Shown: positions 5,964 through 30,592 of the stretch, piece by piece
Layout: each line of letters opens with the position of its first letter
Position numbering within the stretch: position 1 is the stretch's first letter
Origin: a bacterium
Lineage (GTDB): Bacteria; Patescibacteriota; Minisyncoccia; Phycocordibacterales; Zambryskibacteraceae
Direction of reading: 5' to 3'
DNA length: 64,000 nt
NCBI GenBank assembly: GCA_023266935.1
Contig: JAHFOF010000001.1
Location: forward strand, 27 to 64,026
Notes under the pieces: model-generated
The model's input: the letters and a program-made list of their open reading frames with translations, nothing else
Database searches by the model: none
Told to the model about the DNA's origin: nothing
Translations under genes and position numbers: made by a program

Positions 5964-6182
5964 CTATTTTGCCAATTTTACTGTCGAAGCATAAATCGGC
6001 ATGGCTTTCTCTATGATTTGACCTTTGCCATCTTTCTTTTTGGCTTTCTCATGAATCTTTTTGATATTTATTCCTTCAACCACAACTTTCATTTCTTTAG
6101 GAATAGATTTCAAAATCTTGCCGGACTTACCTTTGTCCTTGCCTGAGAGTATTACCACATTGTCGCCTTTTTTTACGTGCAT
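5964..6182 (-). CDS. rplX: 50S ribosomal protein L24
   Basis: KOW motif KKGDNVVILSGKDKGKSGKI. Confidence 0.9.
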   Translation of the reverse strand: MHVKKGDNVVILSGKDKGKSGKILKSIPKEMKVVVEGINIKKIHEKAKKKDGKGQIIEKAMPIYASTVKLAK

Positions 6183-6191
6183 ATATTTATA

Positions 6192-6563
6192 TTAAACAAC
6201 CTCTGGAGCCAAGGAAATAATTTTTTGGAAACCTTTTTCACCAATTTCTCGAGGAATCGGTCCAAAAACACGTCCCGCCTGTGGTTCGCTCTTCGCTTTG
6301 TCCAAAATCACTACCGCGTTCTCATCAAATCTAAGATACGAACCATCTGCTCGACGAAAAGGGGCTCGTTGTCGAACTACCACGGCATACAAAATATCCT
6401 TCTTTTTCACCGTTTTTCGAGGCTCGGCTTTTTGCACAGAAAGCACTACGATGTCTCCGATTCCCGCTGTTCTTTTCTTTGAAGCTCCGAGCACTTTAAA
6501 AATACGCCCGATTTTACCTCCGGAGTTGTCAGCTATTTGAACGATTGTGCGAGGTTGAATCAT
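6192..6563 (-). CDS. rplN: 50S ribosomal protein L14
   Basis: MIQPRTIVQIADNSGGK start is the L14 signature. Confidence 0.9.
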   Translation of the reverse strand: MIQPRTIVQIADNSGGKIGRIFKVLGASKKRTAGIGDIVVLSVQKAEPRKTVKKKDILYAVVVRQRAPFRRADGSYLRFDENAVVILDKAKSEPQAGRVFGPIPREIGEKGFQKIISLAPEVV

Positions 6564-9009: not shown

Positions 9010-9630
9010 CTAGATCCCCTCGAGTTCCTCGAGAAGAACTGTCGCGATCCTCGCGTCTTCTTCTTCCTCAGCAATGAGCCGGTCGGTCTTGACGATTATC
9101 AACTCGCCCTTTCGTGTGACGAGAGCCCCCAACGGTTCGACGCCGGGCTGACGTTGAACCAGGTCAACACATACCAACCCATTCGGGTTCAGCCATGTGT
9201 GACAGGTCCAGACCGCGTCAGTCGCCAGAGTTCGAAGACCGGCTCGTGCCTCGATCGGAATCTCCGGCGCCGTCTCACCCTCAGCGAGCCGACGGTACTG
9301 AAGCACCGTTGCATGCCTGGTGGGCTTGCCCTGACAAACCAGATTGAAACTGTGCCCATCCACGAGATGCAGACCGTTCGCGGTGAGCCCAACTCGGAGC
9401 ATCGCCACCTGAATCTTCTGCATGTTGTTCATGGCCTGAACACCGCGTCCTACTCCGTTCTCGCGACGACGAGCAAGAAGTTCCTGCTCAGTTCTGCGCT
9501 CAATCGAGCGAATGCCCGGAGGAATTGATCTCAAACTCGGTGAAATGAATTTCACCGTGAGATCATCGATCATCCCAAGAGGAATGGGGTGGCTCTCGCC
9601 CGGTCGAGCCGAAGCGATTCGATCAAACAT
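9010..9630 (-). CDS. hypothetical protein; GC-rich (~58%), probable foreign origin
   Basis: 206-aa ORF; GC content far above surroundings; GGAGAG Shine-Dalgarno before the ATG; own promoter and terminator. Confidence 0.6.
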   Translation of the reverse strand: MFDRIASARPGESHPIPLGMIDDLTVKFISPSLRSIPPGIRSIERRTEQELLARRRENGVGRGVQAMNNMQKIQVAMLRVGLTANGLHLVDGHSFNLVCQGKPTRHATVLQYRRLAEGETAPEIPIEARAGLRTLATDAVWTCHTWLNPNGLVCVDLVQRQPGVEPLGALVTRKGELIIVKTDRLIAEEEEDARIATVLLEELEGI

Positions 9631-9825: not shown

Positions 9826-10449
9826 CTAGGCAGCGATGTCCTCGAGTTCCTTGGACAGGTCCTCAGCGAAACCTTCGTCCATCACCTGCTCCTGCAGAGC
9901 GACGACTTGCTTGACCTCGCTCTGAAGAGCAATGAGGTACTGATTGATCTCGTTGTAAGCCACAACGAGATCCTCGTAGGTGGCGTTCGACTTCGGGTCC
10001 AGAAGGTCGCGAAGCCGTGTCTGCAGAGAGAAAATCTCGTCGGCCTTGGCTTCCAGCACCTCCGGTGCCGTTTTTCGGATCACTTGCATCACGTTGTCCT
10101 GATGATCAAAGGTTCCTGAAAGGAACCCCTCGAACTTGTCATACAGCTCATCCGTGATGCTCTGCGCCATAGAAATGACGCGAAGGATCTGGCCGTCATC
10201 TGTCTTCTGCTTCGCTCGGACCTTGTCCACCTGCGCATTGCAGAACAGAACGAGCCTCTTGATGCTGTTGTCGGGGCCAGAGGGAAGCCGGAACCCGCCG
10301 AGCAACTTCAAGATGCCAAGGATGTACTTCATGTTCTTGATCGCGACGACGAGTTGCGCAAGCGGACGATCTTCCGGCTTTGGCTTGGACGTCTTTCCCC
10401 TACGGGTGATCCTTGCCTTCTTCTGATGTTTCTGCGCACTCGGGGTCAT
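9826..10449 (-). CDS. hypothetical protein; GC-rich; lysine-rich N-terminal tail and C-terminal coiled-coil
   Basis: 207-aa ORF; strong AGGAGG Shine-Dalgarno 5 nt before the ATG; GC ~58%. Confidence 0.6.
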   Translation of the reverse strand: MTPSAQKHQKKARITRRGKTSKPKPEDRPLAQLVVAIKNMKYILGILKLLGGFRLPSGPDNSIKRLVLFCNAQVDKVRAKQKTDDGQILRVISMAQSITDELYDKFEGFLSGTFDHQDNVMQVIRKTAPEVLEAKADEIFSLQTRLRDLLDPKSNATYEDLVVAYNEINQYLIALQSEVKQVVALQEQVMDEGFAEDLSKELEDIAA

Positions 10450-26141: not shown

Positions 26142-27660
26142 CTCCATAGAAAACATAAACCAATACCATTCCCCATATTGGGAACGAGGAAATTTTTAGA
26201 CTGGCCCAAGAAAGATTGCCGAGTATATGGGCCACGCCGAGTATCCAAGAGAGAAAAATGTGAGCAACAAGTGTGAATGGAAGCGAGATAATCGTTGAGA
26301 CATAGGAAAGAGTTGTAGAAACAAATCCAATGAGCATGGTGAATGGGACAAAGGCTAAAATCAAAATATTAGAAAGGAGAGAAACGACAGAAACACTACC
26401 CATACTGTATAAGAGAAACGGTAAAACAAATATTTGAGTAGAAATTGTGGCTGAAAGAATCTGTCTCATCCCCCACCTCTCTGTGATTTTAGTTAAATAT
26501 TTATCAACTACTGGAGAAACATAAATCATCGCGATAGTGGCGAGCATTGAAAGTTGAAACGATGGATCAAAAACTAAAATTTTAGGATTTTGAATAAGCA
26601 TCATAAATCCTGCGACGAGCAAAGCACGAGAAACAGAATAACTTCGCCCAAACATCTTGCCCGAGATAGCTATGAGAGCCATAATCCCCGCTCGAACGAT
26701 GGTCGCACTCGCGCCGGTCATCAAAACAAACAAAATGACACCGAAAATTGAAATACTCGAAGCGATTCGGAGAGAAAGAAAACTTAAAATCCTACGGAAA
26801 AATTCTGCGACTATCATAATGTTGTATCCAGAAAGAACTACAATATGAATCACTCCCGCGTTTTTGAATTCATCCAAAATAGATTTAGGCAAGGCCTGTT
26901 TACCTGAAACAAGTAACCCCGCGAGGAGAGATGCTTTGGGCTCTTCTAAAATACTCTTCATTTTAGCCACAAAACTACCTTTGACCCATAGTAGAGAGGA
27001 TATAATTGGATTCGCCTTGTTATATGAATCGATGCTAGTTTGAGCAAAACTCATCGTGTAATAAATATCATCTTTAGATAAATACTGCCCATAATCAAAA
27101 CTTCGCCCCGCATCACTATCAATTATTCCTGGCTTTTCTAATTTTCCTGAAATCCTTATTTCATCACCATATTTAATCTCTGAATATAAATCTGTACTGA
27201 CTAAAATTCTTTCTTTGCCCTCCGAAGCCTTGGCAAAGGTGGGTCGTTCAACCTCAATCACAAACCTCGTATCTTTTTCTCTTTTCTCTGGTTCAGTCAC
27301 GACTACACCATTTAAATTTATTTTTGTACCAACGCTTTGTTCAAACTCTGCATCAACTTCATGAAAATCCTTTATATCAAAACGTAAAATCCCAAAACTA
27401 AAAGCGACTAGTCCTAAAATTATTATAAAAACTAATTTTGATACATTTTTATTCCAGATTTTTTCTGAAAAATAAATACCGAGGGAAATAATAAAAAATA
27501 AAAGCGACCAAATCGGTCGTATTTGAATAATCGATGAAACAAAGATTCCAAAAATAAAACTCCAAATGAAAACAAAGATGCTTAAATGCTTATGCTCGTA
27601 AAGAAATTTTATATTCGTGCTTGGGTCCATTGTACAAATATGGTTTGGCTCCATCAGCAA
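26089..27660 (-). CDS. comEC: ComEC/Rec2 DNA-uptake channel, membrane domain only
   Basis: N-terminal DUF4131-like region and competence polytopic domain; no fused MBL domain (encoded separately at 24634..25509). Confidence 0.8.
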   Translation of the reverse strand: MLMEPNHICTMDPSTNIKFLYEHKHLSIFVFIWSFIFGIFVSSIIQIRPIWSLLFFIISLGIYFSEKIWNKNVSKLVFIIILGLVAFSFGILRFDIKDFHEVDAEFEQSVGTKINLNGVVVTEPEKREKDTRFVIEVERPTFAKASEGKERILVSTDLYSEIKYGDEIRISGKLEKPGIIDSDAGRSFDYGQYLSKDDIYYTMSFAQTSIDSYNKANPIISSLLWVKGSFVAKMKSILEEPKASLLAGLLVSGKQALPKSILDEFKNAGVIHIVVLSGYNIMIVAEFFRRILSFLSLRIASSISIFGVILFVLMTGASATIVRAGIMALIAISGKMFGRSYSVSRALLVAGFMMLIQNPKILVFDPSFQLSMLATIAMIYVSPVVDKYLTKITERWGMRQILSATISTQIFVLPFLLYSMGSVSVVSLLSNILILAFVPFTMLIGFVSTTLSYVSTIISLPFTLVAHIFLSWILGVAHILGNLSWASLKISSFPIWGMVLVYVFYGVILVRLRGYVHKSANLN

Positions 27661-28069
27661 AGCTGGTGGCTATCTCATCACACCTCTCGTTCGCTTGAAC
27701 ACCCGCGTGACCTTCAACCAAGCTCCAATGAATCTTTTTATCCACGCTCGCTTCATACAAATCCATCCATAAATCTTTGTTCTCTACTGGTTTCTTTTGA
27801 CTTGTGCGCCAATTATTTTTCATCCAACCATGTATCCATTCGGTGATACCCTTCACCACATAAGTCGCATCAGAATACAGAGTGACTTCCACACCTACAG
27901 GCAACGATTCTAGGGCTTTAATACAGGCCATAAGCTCCATTTTATTATTCGTCGTGTGTTCGTCTCGACCCCCTATTTCTTTCACCTCATCACCATGCTG
28001 AATAACCGCCCCCCAGCCTCCGGGTCCAGGATTCCCTTTCGAAGATCCGTCTGTGAAGATAATTATCAT
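27590..28069 (-). CDS. rnhA: ribonuclease HI
   Basis: TDGS...E...D...HxGxxxNExxD catalytic pattern; ATG overlaps the RT stop (TAATG). Confidence 0.9.
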   Translation of the reverse strand: MIIIFTDGSSKGNPGPGGWGAVIQHGDEVKEIGGRDEHTTNNKMELMACIKALESLPVGVEVTLYSDATYVVKGITEWIHGWMKNNWRTSQKKPVENKDLWMDLYEASVDKKIHWSLVEGHAGVQANERCDEIATSFADGAKPYLYNGPKHEYKISLRA

Positions 28070-29049
28070 TATGAAAGTATATCATTAACTAATTTTGTAA
28101 TTTTATAAGCATCTCCGTGCTTAAGTAATCCTAAATAAGACTCAATGGTTTCCGGCTTAACATCTTCTTTCTTCAGATTCTTAAACATCCTCTTCTTAGT
28201 CGAAGTCCTCAATACTCTGTGGTTAAAAAAGTTCACCCAACCCAGAAAATCCACTCCTGAAGCAAGAGTTTTAATAAAAACCTTATCCGGGTGCAGTTGT
28301 AGTTTTAATTTATTATTTAAAAATTTATTTATTTCCACCAACAAATTCTCCAAATATTTCTTATCTTGAGACATAGTCACAAAATCATCGGCATATCGAA
28401 TATAATATTTCACCTTTAATTTATGCTTCAGATATTGATCAAATTCATTCATATGGATATTCACTAGAAGTTGAGAGGTTAAATTTCCTAATGGTAGGCC
28501 TGTATTTTCCTTTTCTGAACTAAAGCTTCTAATGATTCTTTCCAAAAGCCAGATGGTGTCTAGGTCTTTAATATGTTTCCTCAATATGGTTAGGAGTATT
28601 CGATGATCAATACTGGCAAAGAATTTCCTGATGTCACACTTCAGAATCCAACATTGCTTAGTATTATTTTTGGATACTTTATGTCCAAATACTCTAAATC
28701 TGTTTATCGCTCTATGTGTTCCTTTGTTTAGTCTGCAGGAATATGAATCATGGATAAACTTTTTGTCGAAATATGGATACAAAACTCTATATAAGCAATG
28801 ATGAAGTAATCTGTCTCGGACTAAAGCTTTGTGAATATTTCTTGGTTTTGGGTCTGAGATATTGAAGGCGTGGTAGGAGCTATGGATATAGGATTTATTT
28901 ACTAAATCTTCATGTAGTTGGAAGATGTTTGAAGAAAGGTTGTCAGCAAACAACATTACATCTTTTCTTTTGCGTTTACCTTTTAAAAACTCCCGCCAAG
29001 CATCCAATAGATTTTCGATTGATATGATATTCTCATACATATGTATCAA
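28069..29049 (-). CDS. diversity-generating retroelement reverse transcriptase
   Basis: LPLGNLTSQ (DGR-specific motif 4) and YIRYADDFV (YxDD); 326 aa; adjacent TR/VR pair. Confidence 0.9.
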   Translation of the reverse strand: MIHMYENIISIENLLDAWREFLKGKRKRKDVMLFADNLSSNIFQLHEDLVNKSYIHSSYHAFNISDPKPRNIHKALVRDRLLHHCLYRVLYPYFDKKFIHDSYSCRLNKGTHRAINRFRVFGHKVSKNNTKQCWILKCDIRKFFASIDHRILLTILRKHIKDLDTIWLLERIIRSFSSEKENTGLPLGNLTSQLLVNIHMNEFDQYLKHKLKVKYYIRYADDFVTMSQDKKYLENLLVEINKFLNNKLKLQLHPDKVFIKTLASGVDFLGWVNFFNHRVLRTSTKKRMFKNLKKEDVKPETIESYLGLLKHGDAYKITKLVNDILS

Positions 29050-29431
29050 TCTAATACTATCAGTACCCCCCCCCGCAAAAGTACCTGCGGTACTTTTTAG
29101 AACAAAAAATATATATTCAATTTGGTTAAATCTTTATAGAAAATTTCCTAAACCGGAGCGATTTGGTATCGGTGAAAAAATAGATATTTTGTTTCTTGAT
29201 ATTCTAGAACTCGTTTTTATATTTAAATTTGCCAAATTATTCGAGAAAATTTCATATACAGAATCAATTATTTTAATAATAGATAAATTAAAATTTTTTA
29301 TGGAAGTTGCTTGGGAGAATAAACTGATTTCAAGCAAGCAGTATAGTGAAATTCTGATAAAACTCGAAGAAATCGGAAAAGAGTTTGGTGGATGGAGAAA
29401 ATCATTAACAAAAACTCCTACCTTTCGATAG
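29024..29431 (+). CDS. Avd-like four-helix-bundle accessory protein (start uncertain)
   Basis: FPKPERFGIG...EEIGKEFGGWRKSL matches the Avd/23S-IVS four-helix-bundle family pattern (FPKEERYGL...EIGKML.GLIKSL); unusually on the opposite strand to the RT. Confidence 0.5.
   Translation: MIFSYICINLILSVPPPAKVPAVLFRTKNIYSIWLNLYRKFPKPERFGIGEKIDILFLDILELVFIFKFAKLFEKISYTESIILIIDKLKFFMEVAWENKLISSKQYSEILIKLEEIGKEFGGWRKSLTKTPTFR
29066..29074. repeat. homopolymeric C(9)/G(9) tract
   Basis: Nine consecutive C on the plus strand, between the RT start and inside the putative avd 5' region; followed by the hairpin at 29077..29097. Confidence 0.8.
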
Positions 29432-29449
29432 GAGAAACTACAATAGTAA

Positions 29450-29562
29450 CGAGAAACCACATGGTTGTCTGCATTCCACCTGTTCGGATTCTCGACGGAG
29501 TTCGCGTTCAAGTTCCAACCGTCGTTGTTGGCGTTCCAGTTCGCGTTCACAGCCCAGAGTCG
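29450..29562 (-). repeat. DGR template repeat (TR)
   Basis: 113 bp homologous to 29824..29936; every one of 21 mismatches is a minus-strand A in this copy. Confidence 0.88.
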
Positions 29563-29785
29563 TTTCGTGTGAGAAACCATCTATGCCACCATCCCTTGAA
29601 TACTCTCGGGGTTGAATTTTATTCGGCATCATAATGCCAGAGTATCTCACACCAACTATTTTTGTTTTTTGGTCGAAAAAATATCGACACTATCTGCCAC
29701 CCCAAACCTTGGTCGGGAATGCCAGCAGACTTGTTTTTATTATATATGAAAATGGGCACCCTTTCGGAATGCCCATTCGTCCATC

Positions 29786-29804
29786 ATCCCGCCCATGGCG
29801 GGAT
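29786..29804 (-). promoter_or_regulatory. GC hairpin flanking the VR 3' end
   Basis: ATCCCGCC-cat-GGCGGGAT, 8-bp stem, immediately after the target stop codon. Confidence 0.5.
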
Positions 29805-29816
29805 TTCAAGGGAACA

Positions 29817-30365
29817 TCAGTTGCGAGAAACCACACGGTCGCCCGCACCCCACCCGTGCGGATTCCCGACGGAGTTCGCGCGCAAGCCCCAACCGTCGCG
29901 GCCGGCGCTCCAGTCCGCGCGCACAGCCCAGAGTCGACCATCCTTACCACGAAGGTAAAAGATGAACCACTCGGTGCTCCCGCGGTTGTCCGCAAGGAAC
30001 TGCTTGAATTGGGATACCGATGTTTCCGCCTTGTCCCCCAGCTCGGTGAGGATGGGAGCATCGAGTGACGACTGCTCGAGCTTCCTTACAGCAAGCTCGG
30101 CCACATCGGTGACGGGAACTTCGAGGCCAAGGAACTGGCTCTCAAAATTGTTCCCGAACCACTTGGCCCCAGCTTCTGCAAAATACTGCTTCGAGGTGGT
30201 GACTGCCGGTTGGGCAGGCATCCTCACCGTGCGGAGAAGGGTGAGGAGGGTCTTGAAGACGATCTCGCCCTGACCACCGATAAAGCGAAGGAAGTTCTCC
30301 CAACCGCCCATACGGTTGATGCAAGCTTCCGTCTGCCCAGCGGTTACATCGTTGTACTTGGCCAT
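29817..30365 (-). CDS. DGR target protein (variable C-terminus)
   Basis: 182 aa; GC-rich; GGGGAG Shine-Dalgarno; last ~40 codons (RLWAVRADWSAGRDGWGLRANSVGNPHGWGAGDRVVSRN) overlie the VR; the TR-frame translation has Asn at the varied positions. Confidence 0.8.
   Translation of the reverse strand: MAKYNDVTAGQTEACINRMGGWENFLRFIGGQGEIVFKTLLTLLRTVRMPAQPAVTTSKQYFAEAGAKWFGNNFESQFLGLEVPVTDVAELAVRKLEQSSLDAPILTELGDKAETSVSQFKQFLADNRGSTEWFIFYLRGKDGRLWAVRADWSAGRDGWGLRANSVGNPHGWGAGDRVVSRN
29824..29936 (-). repeat. DGR variable repeat (VR)
   Basis: Copy with G or C where the TR has A (minus strand); lies inside the 3' end of the target gene. Confidence 0.88.
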
Positions 30366-30592
30366 TGTGTTCTCCCCAGCTCAAAGCTGAAGTCATCCCT
30401 CTATCCGAGGTTGTAGGAGCTTGGCAACCGAGTGTCGCCATAGCACTAGAGAAATAAAATTTACATCCCTAAGGCTATGGCGAATTGCAACTGATTTAAA
30501 TGAACTTTTAACTGTATATAGTATATACCTAAATTAGTAGTTTGTCAAATGATTCATGCCAAGGCCTTGCCTCGTCAGATTATAACCTTATT

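Follow-up and report, generated by a model that had tools for sequence, protein, structure and literature searches.

Diversity-generating retroelements (DGRs) are known to be enriched in the candidate phyla radiation (CPR, Patescibacteria), where they show a characteristic build. According to Wu et al. 2018 (PMC5758913), 90% of the CPR DGRs have architecture B3, i.e. template repeat (TR), avd and reverse transcriptase (RT) gene in the order TR-(avd)-RT with avd reversed, an arrangement that is almost absent elsewhere; Paul et al. 2017, as cited by Wu et al., likewise stand for CPR DGRs of this architecture. Wu et al. further report that DGR RTs lack RNase H domains, that few CPR targets contain any motif and that many variable regions (VRs) fall into "unknown" classes or stay ungrouped. 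Roux et al. 2021 (PMC8144416) described a cell-encoded, Patescibacteria-restricted DGR clade (clade 2) whose targets are typically devoid of transmembrane or other recognisable domains; they expected new C-type lectin variants among them and left undecided whether CPR targets are truly non-membrane. Here, we analysed a stretch of 64,000 nucleotides from contig JAHFOF010000001.1 (assembly GCA_023266935.1, Zambryskibacteraceae), in the following termed the window, in which an earlier note, made by a model from the letters alone, had placed a complete DGR at 27590-30365. With a probability of about 0.9 we regard the element as a chromosomal DGR of the Patescibacteria lineage; it is a genuine and complete DGR of the known CPR type and, judging from its sequence, probably active. 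As DGR enrichment in the CPR is already known, one further case is not news, and it is an RNA domain next to the TR, a homopolymeric C-run and the base composition of the target cassette that merit specialist follow-up.

The identity of the element rests mainly on its two repeats. TR and VR were compared without gaps at a fixed offset of 374 bp, and the same pair emerged from an independent repeat search. They differ at 21 of 113 bp, and at every mismatch the TR has a T on the plus strand, i.e. an A on the minus strand, where the VR has C (17) or G (4). On the coding strand, the path from TR to VR thus consists of 17 A-to-G and four A-to-C changes, i.e. 21 of the 31 TR adenines are altered, but none of the 82 non-adenine positions (hypergeometric P = 1.3e-15 for 21 mismatches all falling on 31 adenines). 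The absence of any difference at the 82 non-adenine positions is consistent with a recent homing event. Within open reading frame (ORF) 29817-30365 the VR is read in frame 0 and covers 38 codons (144-181). Codon positions 1 and 2 hold 29 of the 31 TR adenines, and AAC codons occur ten times; the translations (RLWAVNANWNANNDGW... for the TR, RLWAVRADWSAGRDGW... for the VR) agree with the strings given in the earlier note, which had recognised both the adenine restriction, now exact on the computed alignment with no substitution at other bases, and the Asn codons at the variable sites. The TR core 18-mer GTGAACGCGAACTGGAAC is unchanged across 31 aligned related loci. At the 3' boundary TR and VR have GTGGTTTCTCG in common before the sequences diverge, resembling the initiation of mutagenic homing (IMH) element, although the Bordetella IMH is more GC-rich. 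Searches of the window with the TR, the target protein and two invariant ends yielded no further copy of either repeat, in line with the single target seen before.

The protein-coding parts are those expected of a DGR. The closest solved structure of the RT is 8ub7_A, a 328-aa RT that we take, going by its sequence, to be the bRT of the Bordetella phage (E 3.1e-39), ahead of group II intron RTs (5e-23). In the alignment with 8ub7_A, LGNLTSQ matches IGSLTSQ and YADD matches YMDD, i.e. the DGR motif-4 signature [ILV]GxxxSQ and the catalytic YxDD are both present, which bears out the motifs read from the sequence earlier, and the profile search (Table 1) identifies the protein as an RT. The Avd-like gene had also been recognised correctly, and it lies on the plus strand, opposite RT, TR and VR. 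Its scores are marginal: Pfam bAvd gives 40.1 bits at a cut-off of 40, NCBIfam DivGenRetAVD 56 bits, below the cut-off of 80, and a comparison of Avd with PDB sequences returned chance matches only. In all relatives avd is found on the opposite strand, and it adjoins the RT gene wherever a related locus contains one. ATG 29024, which overlaps the 5' end of the RT gene on the other strand, is the sole canonical start in frame with avd, and the true start codon is uncertain. Every DGR hallmark that can be tested in a sequence was thus found, namely a DGR-type RT, an Avd homologue, adenine-only TR/VR differences, a VR that forms the 3' end of an ORF and a hairpin downstream of it. Two corrections to the earlier description are necessary: the DGR parts lie within the proposed interval, but its section 27590-28069 is occupied by a gene of its own, for RNase HI, and the "canonical parts list" is present, but in B3 layout with an inverted avd and not in the canonical Bordetella order.

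Table 1. Features of the DGR locus and its immediate surroundings, with positions counted in the window.
Feature	Position	Strand	Description and evidence
Template repeat (TR)	29450..29562	minus	113 bp; repeat search and ungapped comparison
Variable region (VR)	29824..29936	minus	38 codons at the end of the target; differs from the TR by 21 substitutions
Target (variable protein) gene	29817..30365	minus	182 aa; G+C content at third codon positions (GC3) 0.72
DGR reverse transcriptase	28069..29049	minus	326 aa; Pfam RVT_1 6.2e-24
avd, conserved body	29102..29431	plus	Pfam bAvd 5.8e-10; NCBIfam DivGenRetAVD 3.6e-15
Upstream part of putative DGR RNA	29653..29744	minus	TATAAT 29744-29739, subgroup-conserved hairpins, conserved A-rich run (alignments)
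Three-helix RNA domain (three-way junction)	29567..29652	minus	RNAalifold, 31 non-identical sequences
Stem-loop CUCCUAUC-GAAA-GGUAGGAG followed by UUUUU	29410..29434	minus	8 bp, GNRA loop, 15 nt after the TR, terminator-like
GC-rich hairpin ATCCCGCC-ATG-GGCGGGAT	29786..29804	minus	8 bp, 19 nt downstream of the VR; RNA fold
Second hairpin with T-run, terminator-like	29751..29777	minus	end of target gene; same arrangement in relatives
Target 5' leader	30366..30519	minus	inverted repeat 30435-30483, CCTCGG..AGAGGGA / GCTTT.AG block, GGGGAG Shine-Dalgarno site
Promoter-like site of target, TTGACA-17-TATACT	30520..30548	minus	consensus scan, 11/12
C9 homopolymer	29066..29074	plus	between the divergent RT and avd genes
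9-bp hairpin AAAAGTACC-TGC-GGTACTTTT	29077..29097	plus	directly after the C-run
rnhA (RNase HI)	27590-28069	minus	NCBIfam equivalog, 193 bits (threshold 160)

The element is not isolated. A genome scan yielded 11 related loci and a metagenome scan with the invariant TR 18-mer about 120 more stretches, the RTs of the relatives being 58-73% identical to that of the window. Every related locus with both RT and avd (~30) has the layout target-VR, TR, reversed avd, RT. Where both repeats are present (25 loci), TR adenines account for 441 of 518 differences, with 51% of the adenine changes going to G, 29% to T and 20% to C; this count used a fixed 113-nt frame, and part of the remainder is due to the frame running past the repeat ends. 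A-to-T is absent among the 21 changes of the window VR, whereas it makes up the 29% just given in the relatives. If changes are treated as independent, the chance of finding none in 21 is ~7e-4, and selection on this VR allele may play a role. The DGR is located between recJ and rnhA/comEC, as assigned by NCBIfam, comEC denoting a ComEC-like gene; because of these flanks and the ribosomal protein genes and tRNA cluster elsewhere in the window, the setting is chromosomal. The gene content and layout of the element, its adenine-only repeat differences and its conserved RNA structures, which are described below, are thereby established.

The region between the terminator of the target gene and the TR is conserved across the relatives. 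Its TR-proximal part forms the three-helix domain, in which a 12-bp outer helix (29652-29641 with 29578-29567) encloses two hairpins (29637-29626 and 29612-29591) and ends 5 nt before the first TR base. The covariation support for this domain is strong: of its 20 pairs, 96.1% of the aligned cells are standard pairs, as compared to 28-51% in slid controls, where the pairing partners were moved by one to three columns, 146 cells are compensatory (doubly changed) versus 19-30 in these controls, and 0 of 500 shuffles was as good. Neither in the window nor in 20 relatives does the domain reach an Rfam gathering threshold. Among the weaker matches RT-16 (RF03019) comes first with 19 bits, E 0.7-2.2, against a gathering threshold of 50, and the domain is thus not a member of RT-16 by the Rfam criterion; in a scan of 15 related loci RT-16 was absent from the matches with E<=1. 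Both RNAs nevertheless have an outer helix around two hairpins as well as the junctions AUAAAAU.CA and GGUG in common. RT-16 is among 19 motifs that Weinberg et al. 2017 (PMC5737381) found near RT genes, some of these RT motifs having been speculated to act in DGRs, and the same authors linked RT-10 to the Bordetella spacer. Further upstream, transcription of the DGR RNA may start near TATAAT 29744-29739; beyond this conserved hexamer neither the consensus scan nor the alignment revealed a convincing promoter or a recognisable -35 element.

On the 3' side of the TR, a hairpin with T-run is located at the position of the window's stem-loop in every relative examined, each time with a differing sequence. 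According to a preprint by Handa et al., 207 of 278 DGRs have a predicted Avd-binding stem-loop immediately 3' of the TR, and the stem-loop at 29410-29434 fits their description. In the Bordetella element priming site, stop duplex, thumb ring and RT-binding stem are all contained in the 140-nt spacer 3' of the TR. Here, this space is occupied by the antisense of avd, for which reason we propose that some of the functions of the Bordetella spacer are taken over by the 5' domain. By analogy, the domain may carry the RT-binding and cDNA-stop functions in this lineage, an assignment that we make only tentatively. An analogue of the cPRT-stop duplex, formed by the upstream A-rich run and the U-run/pyrimidine linker after the TR, could not be demonstrated in 21 sequences, both segments being of low complexity.

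Based on these elements we can outline how the DGR might work, with the steps of mutagenic homing taken over from the Bordetella phage element. A non-coding RNA of the minus strand would comprise the 5' three-helix domain, the 113-nt TR, a short pyrimidine-rich linker and the GNRA stem-loop with its U-run. This RNA would be bound by the RT and the divergently encoded Avd, the stem-loop 3' of the TR serving as Avd-binding element. RT and Avd would then copy the TR to cDNA with misincorporation opposite adenines until the 12-bp helix that closes 5 nt upstream of the TR halts synthesis, and the cDNA would finally take the place of the VR in the 3'-terminal part of the target gene. The 3' segment GTGGTTTCTCG that both repeats share and the hairpin downstream of the VR would direct homing. 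The product would be a small protein consisting of a conserved N-terminal module of ~40 aa and a divergent C-type-lectin-like domain, on which ~17 surface positions, mostly encoded by AAC in the TR, could be randomised.

The target protein had been noted as having no homology that could be named. This holds as far as domain databases are concerned, since there is no Pfam or NCBIfam match, and neither a profile search nor a Foldseek search against the PDB returned a significant hit. By its sequence relationships, however, the target belongs to a Patescibacteria-only family of ~180-aa proteins: all named ones among its 133 homologues are from metagenome-assembled genomes of Zambryskibacteria, Parcubacteria or Patescibacteria. 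Moreover, its AlphaFold model, which is confident, matches C-type-lectin-fold structures (C-type lectin, FGE, TvpA) weakly but consistently, i.e. with low scores, and the predicted fold may thus resemble a divergent C-type lectin. The N-terminal ~40 residues are strongly conserved, yet are modelled with low confidence. On visual inspection, done without a predictor, the protein has neither a signal peptide nor a hydrophobic segment. Among 29 target homologues the mean entropy of the VR columns is 2.59 bits where A occupies position 1 or 2 of the TR codon and 0.74 bits elsewhere (Mann-Whitney, p 1e-6). As the variable columns match these TR codons, the family bears the signature of DGR diversification.

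Several observations concern the build of the family. The N-terminal module (…TAGQTEACINRMGGW.NFLR.IGGQG…; 30246-30365 in the window) also forms the start of an otherwise different protein of 190 aa from a further Patescibacteria genome (L011, 5881-6558), and some family members carry other N-termini in place of the ~40-aa module; the target is thus modular. A paralogue, P0022, shares a core of 104 identical residues with the target, but differs from it in N-terminus and VR, and is, as we infer from its sequence, probably a second target elsewhere in the same genome. Its last five variable codons (GAGDR) are identical to those of the window copy, and one change (W to G) affects a codon without a TR adenine, a pattern suggesting that there is a remote second target and that gene conversion has taken place between the two copies. 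In L008 the target (6001-6494) seems to be truncated or frameshifted just before the VR, the alignment stopping at residue 129 and restarting at 147, whereas TR, avd and RT are intact. Finally, L002 and L105 have very similar DGR RNAs and RTs, while their targets are 72% and 31% identical to that of the window; here, the scaffold ahead of a shared VR has apparently been swapped.

Three other explanations have to be weighed against a complete and probably active DGR. The RT might be of another class, i.e. from a group II intron, a retron or a defence system, with the repeat being an unrelated duplication of a gene end. The best NCBIfam matches of the RT are, indeed, a group II intron RT/maturase (147 bits, cut-off 300) and Drt3a (81 bits), but both are below their cut-offs, 8ub7_A outscores the group II RTs by the E-values given above, and Rfam at gathering thresholds detects no intron or retron RNA in the 64 kb. 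As chance would produce the adenine-only mismatches at a level of 1e-15, an Avd gene is present, and ~25 relatives follow the same TR/VR logic, this explanation is effectively refuted. The element could also be a relic that once diversified its target and no longer homes. An avd gene whose conserved body lacks a canonical start beside it and relies on an ATG located 42 nt before the C9 run would agree with decay, as would a TR RNA without a clear promoter. However, all ORFs are intact, the catalytic YADD is present, the RNA structures are preserved, and a dead element would gather ordinary substitutions, which the 82 unchanged non-adenine positions do not show. Diversification of the VR is supported indirectly by P0022, where the same core is joined to a different VR, and by the family-wide variability at TR-adenine codons. 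We thus regard a relic as quite improbable.

The third explanation, which the earlier note had suggested, is that the whole cassette was acquired recently by horizontal transfer, e.g. on a phage. The composition underlying this idea is real: target, VR and TR are GC-rich, the target with 57-64% GC, in a window of 41% GC and between flanks of ~37%, and the target has a Shine-Dalgarno (SD) site, which is rare in the window. Yet these features do not extend to the element as a whole. The AT content of RT (GC3 0.33) and avd (0.21) equals or exceeds that of the host, since the 39 long ORFs of the window have a GC3 of 0.35 +/- 0.08 and its ribosomal protein genes of 0.31-0.40, as compared to 0.70 in the non-VR part of the target, and the element is flanked by the housekeeping genes recJ, rnhA and comEC. 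In 16 related loci the target has a high GC3 (mean 0.70 versus 0.47 for the RT) whatever the composition of the host, so that the high GC is a family-wide trait of the target cassette alone and no sign of a recent acquisition of the element. In addition, of all ORFs in the window with 150 aa or more only three are preceded by an SD-like motif, and these are exactly its three GC3-rich genes, i.e. the target and two unrelated hypothetical genes on the minus strand (9826-10449 and 9010-9630), which have the same high GC3, SD site and strong promoter; this points to a gene class rather than to one import. Recent acquisition of the whole cassette is therefore unlikely, although mobility of the target cassette alone is possible. 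As far as can be judged from the sequences, the GC-rich, SD-led style is a property of the target cassette and of a small gene class, not of the entire DGR, and cassette mobility, gene conversion between paralogues or selection on the mRNA are possible causes. Avoidance of adenine was considered as well and rejected: A and T are both depleted in the target (A 0.21, T 0.22), so the effect is GC enrichment and not specific avoidance of A. The genes at 9010-9630 and 9826-10449 form GC-rich islands beside rpsS and rplV (GC3 0.61 and 0.74, respectively). Each is equipped with an SD site, a terminator and a similar promoter-like leader, TTGAC(A/T)TTTTA.ATCAAGTGTGCTA, and neither has a Pfam match.

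Apart from the RNA domain, the genuine DGR discussed here has a second conspicuous element, the C9 homopolymer, which is the only run of at least seven C or G in the 64 kb. A C-run of 7-12, mostly 9 or 10, is located at the same place in 32 of 32 non-redundant relatives, one of which has an RT that is only 48% identical, and the lengths differ by non-multiples of three. The hairpin directly following the run exhibits compensatory changes in L008 (GCACC/GGTGC) and L068 (GCGCC/GGCGC). A start codon upstream of the C-run and in frame with avd exists in 13 of 32 loci, to which the window belongs through ATG 29024; many other loci have a GTG or TTG just after the run, which is not the case in the window, L001 and L010. 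Thus, one may speculate that the C-run is a contingency tract that switches Avd (or the RT) by slipped-strand mispairing, phase variation acting via translation or via promoter spacing, and if this was true, hypermutation of the target would itself be phase-variable. We consider this idea rather doubtful. Alternatively, the C-run could be an element of an untranslated region (UTR) or promoter, in the former case with a length that is free to drift. Among the loci retrieved there is no near-identical pair that differs only in C-run length, and among the results listed by a literature search there was no paper linking DGRs to homopolymer phase variation.

The target gene is preceded by a structured leader. 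In an alignment of nine loci (L001-L008, L010) CTTGACA-N17-(TG)TATAAT is conserved upstream of the target, the promoter taking the form CTTGACA-N17-TGTATAAT, and is followed by a long hairpin, the invariant CCTCGG.AGAGGGA and GCTTT.AG and, finally, AAGGAG. The leader blocks are invariant in all nine loci, including those without a DGR RT within 6 kb. The leader has no Rfam match and may be a regulatory leader. Downstream of the VR, folding located the GC hairpin that had been reported to flank it, and a hairpin of other sequence occupies the same place in L001, L008, L010 and L002. On the far side of the RT, the start of rnhA overlaps the RT stop codon (ATGA at 28069), which suggests co-transcription of rnhA with the RT, which itself has no RNase H domain. 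RNase HI was considered as a conserved DGR partner, but rejected, as none of ~30 loci has an RNase H gene beside the RT; the linkage looks specific to this locus.

Together with its ~30 relatives the locus constitutes a compact and well-defined lineage in which the outstanding points can be tested directly. The lineage raises the questions how cDNA synthesis is organised with an inverted avd and no spacer RNA between TR and RT, for which the covarying 5' domain and the 3' stem-loop are concrete elements for mutation, whether a hypermutable homopolymer gates DGR activity, and which ligand is bound by a cytoplasmic-looking, possibly lectin-like variable protein of 182 aa in a minimal-genome organism.

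Compared with the element of Bordetella phage BPP-1 (mtd-avd-TR-brt), the DGR of the window has the same type of RT with I/LGxxxSQ and YxDD, an Avd and adenine-specific transfer from TR to VR. In both elements the TR is rich in AAC codons, a hairpin follows the VR, and a stem-loop is located immediately 3' of the TR. The DGR of the window differs in the place of its large conserved RNA structure, which is found on the 5' side of the TR, in that it is chromosomal and not phage-borne, and in its target, a 182-aa protein without signal sequence instead of a tail fibre. The target also has no sequence similarity to, and only low structural scores with, Mtd, TvpA, the archaeal AvpA and the Thermus TaqVP; it is much smaller than these proteins and possesses an unrelated conserved N-terminal module. 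The likeness to the B3 DGRs of the CPR is far closer, as target-VR, TR, reversed avd and RT have the same order and orientation, the element is cell-encoded with a single adjacent target that is devoid of recognisable domains and transmembrane segments, and the host lineage is the same, the homologues being named Zambryskibacteria or Parcubacteria. Taken together, the locus agrees with the descriptions of Wu et al. and Roux et al. in every respect tested, i.e. nothing essential sets it apart from the known CPR DGRs, and the element is ordinary for its kind.

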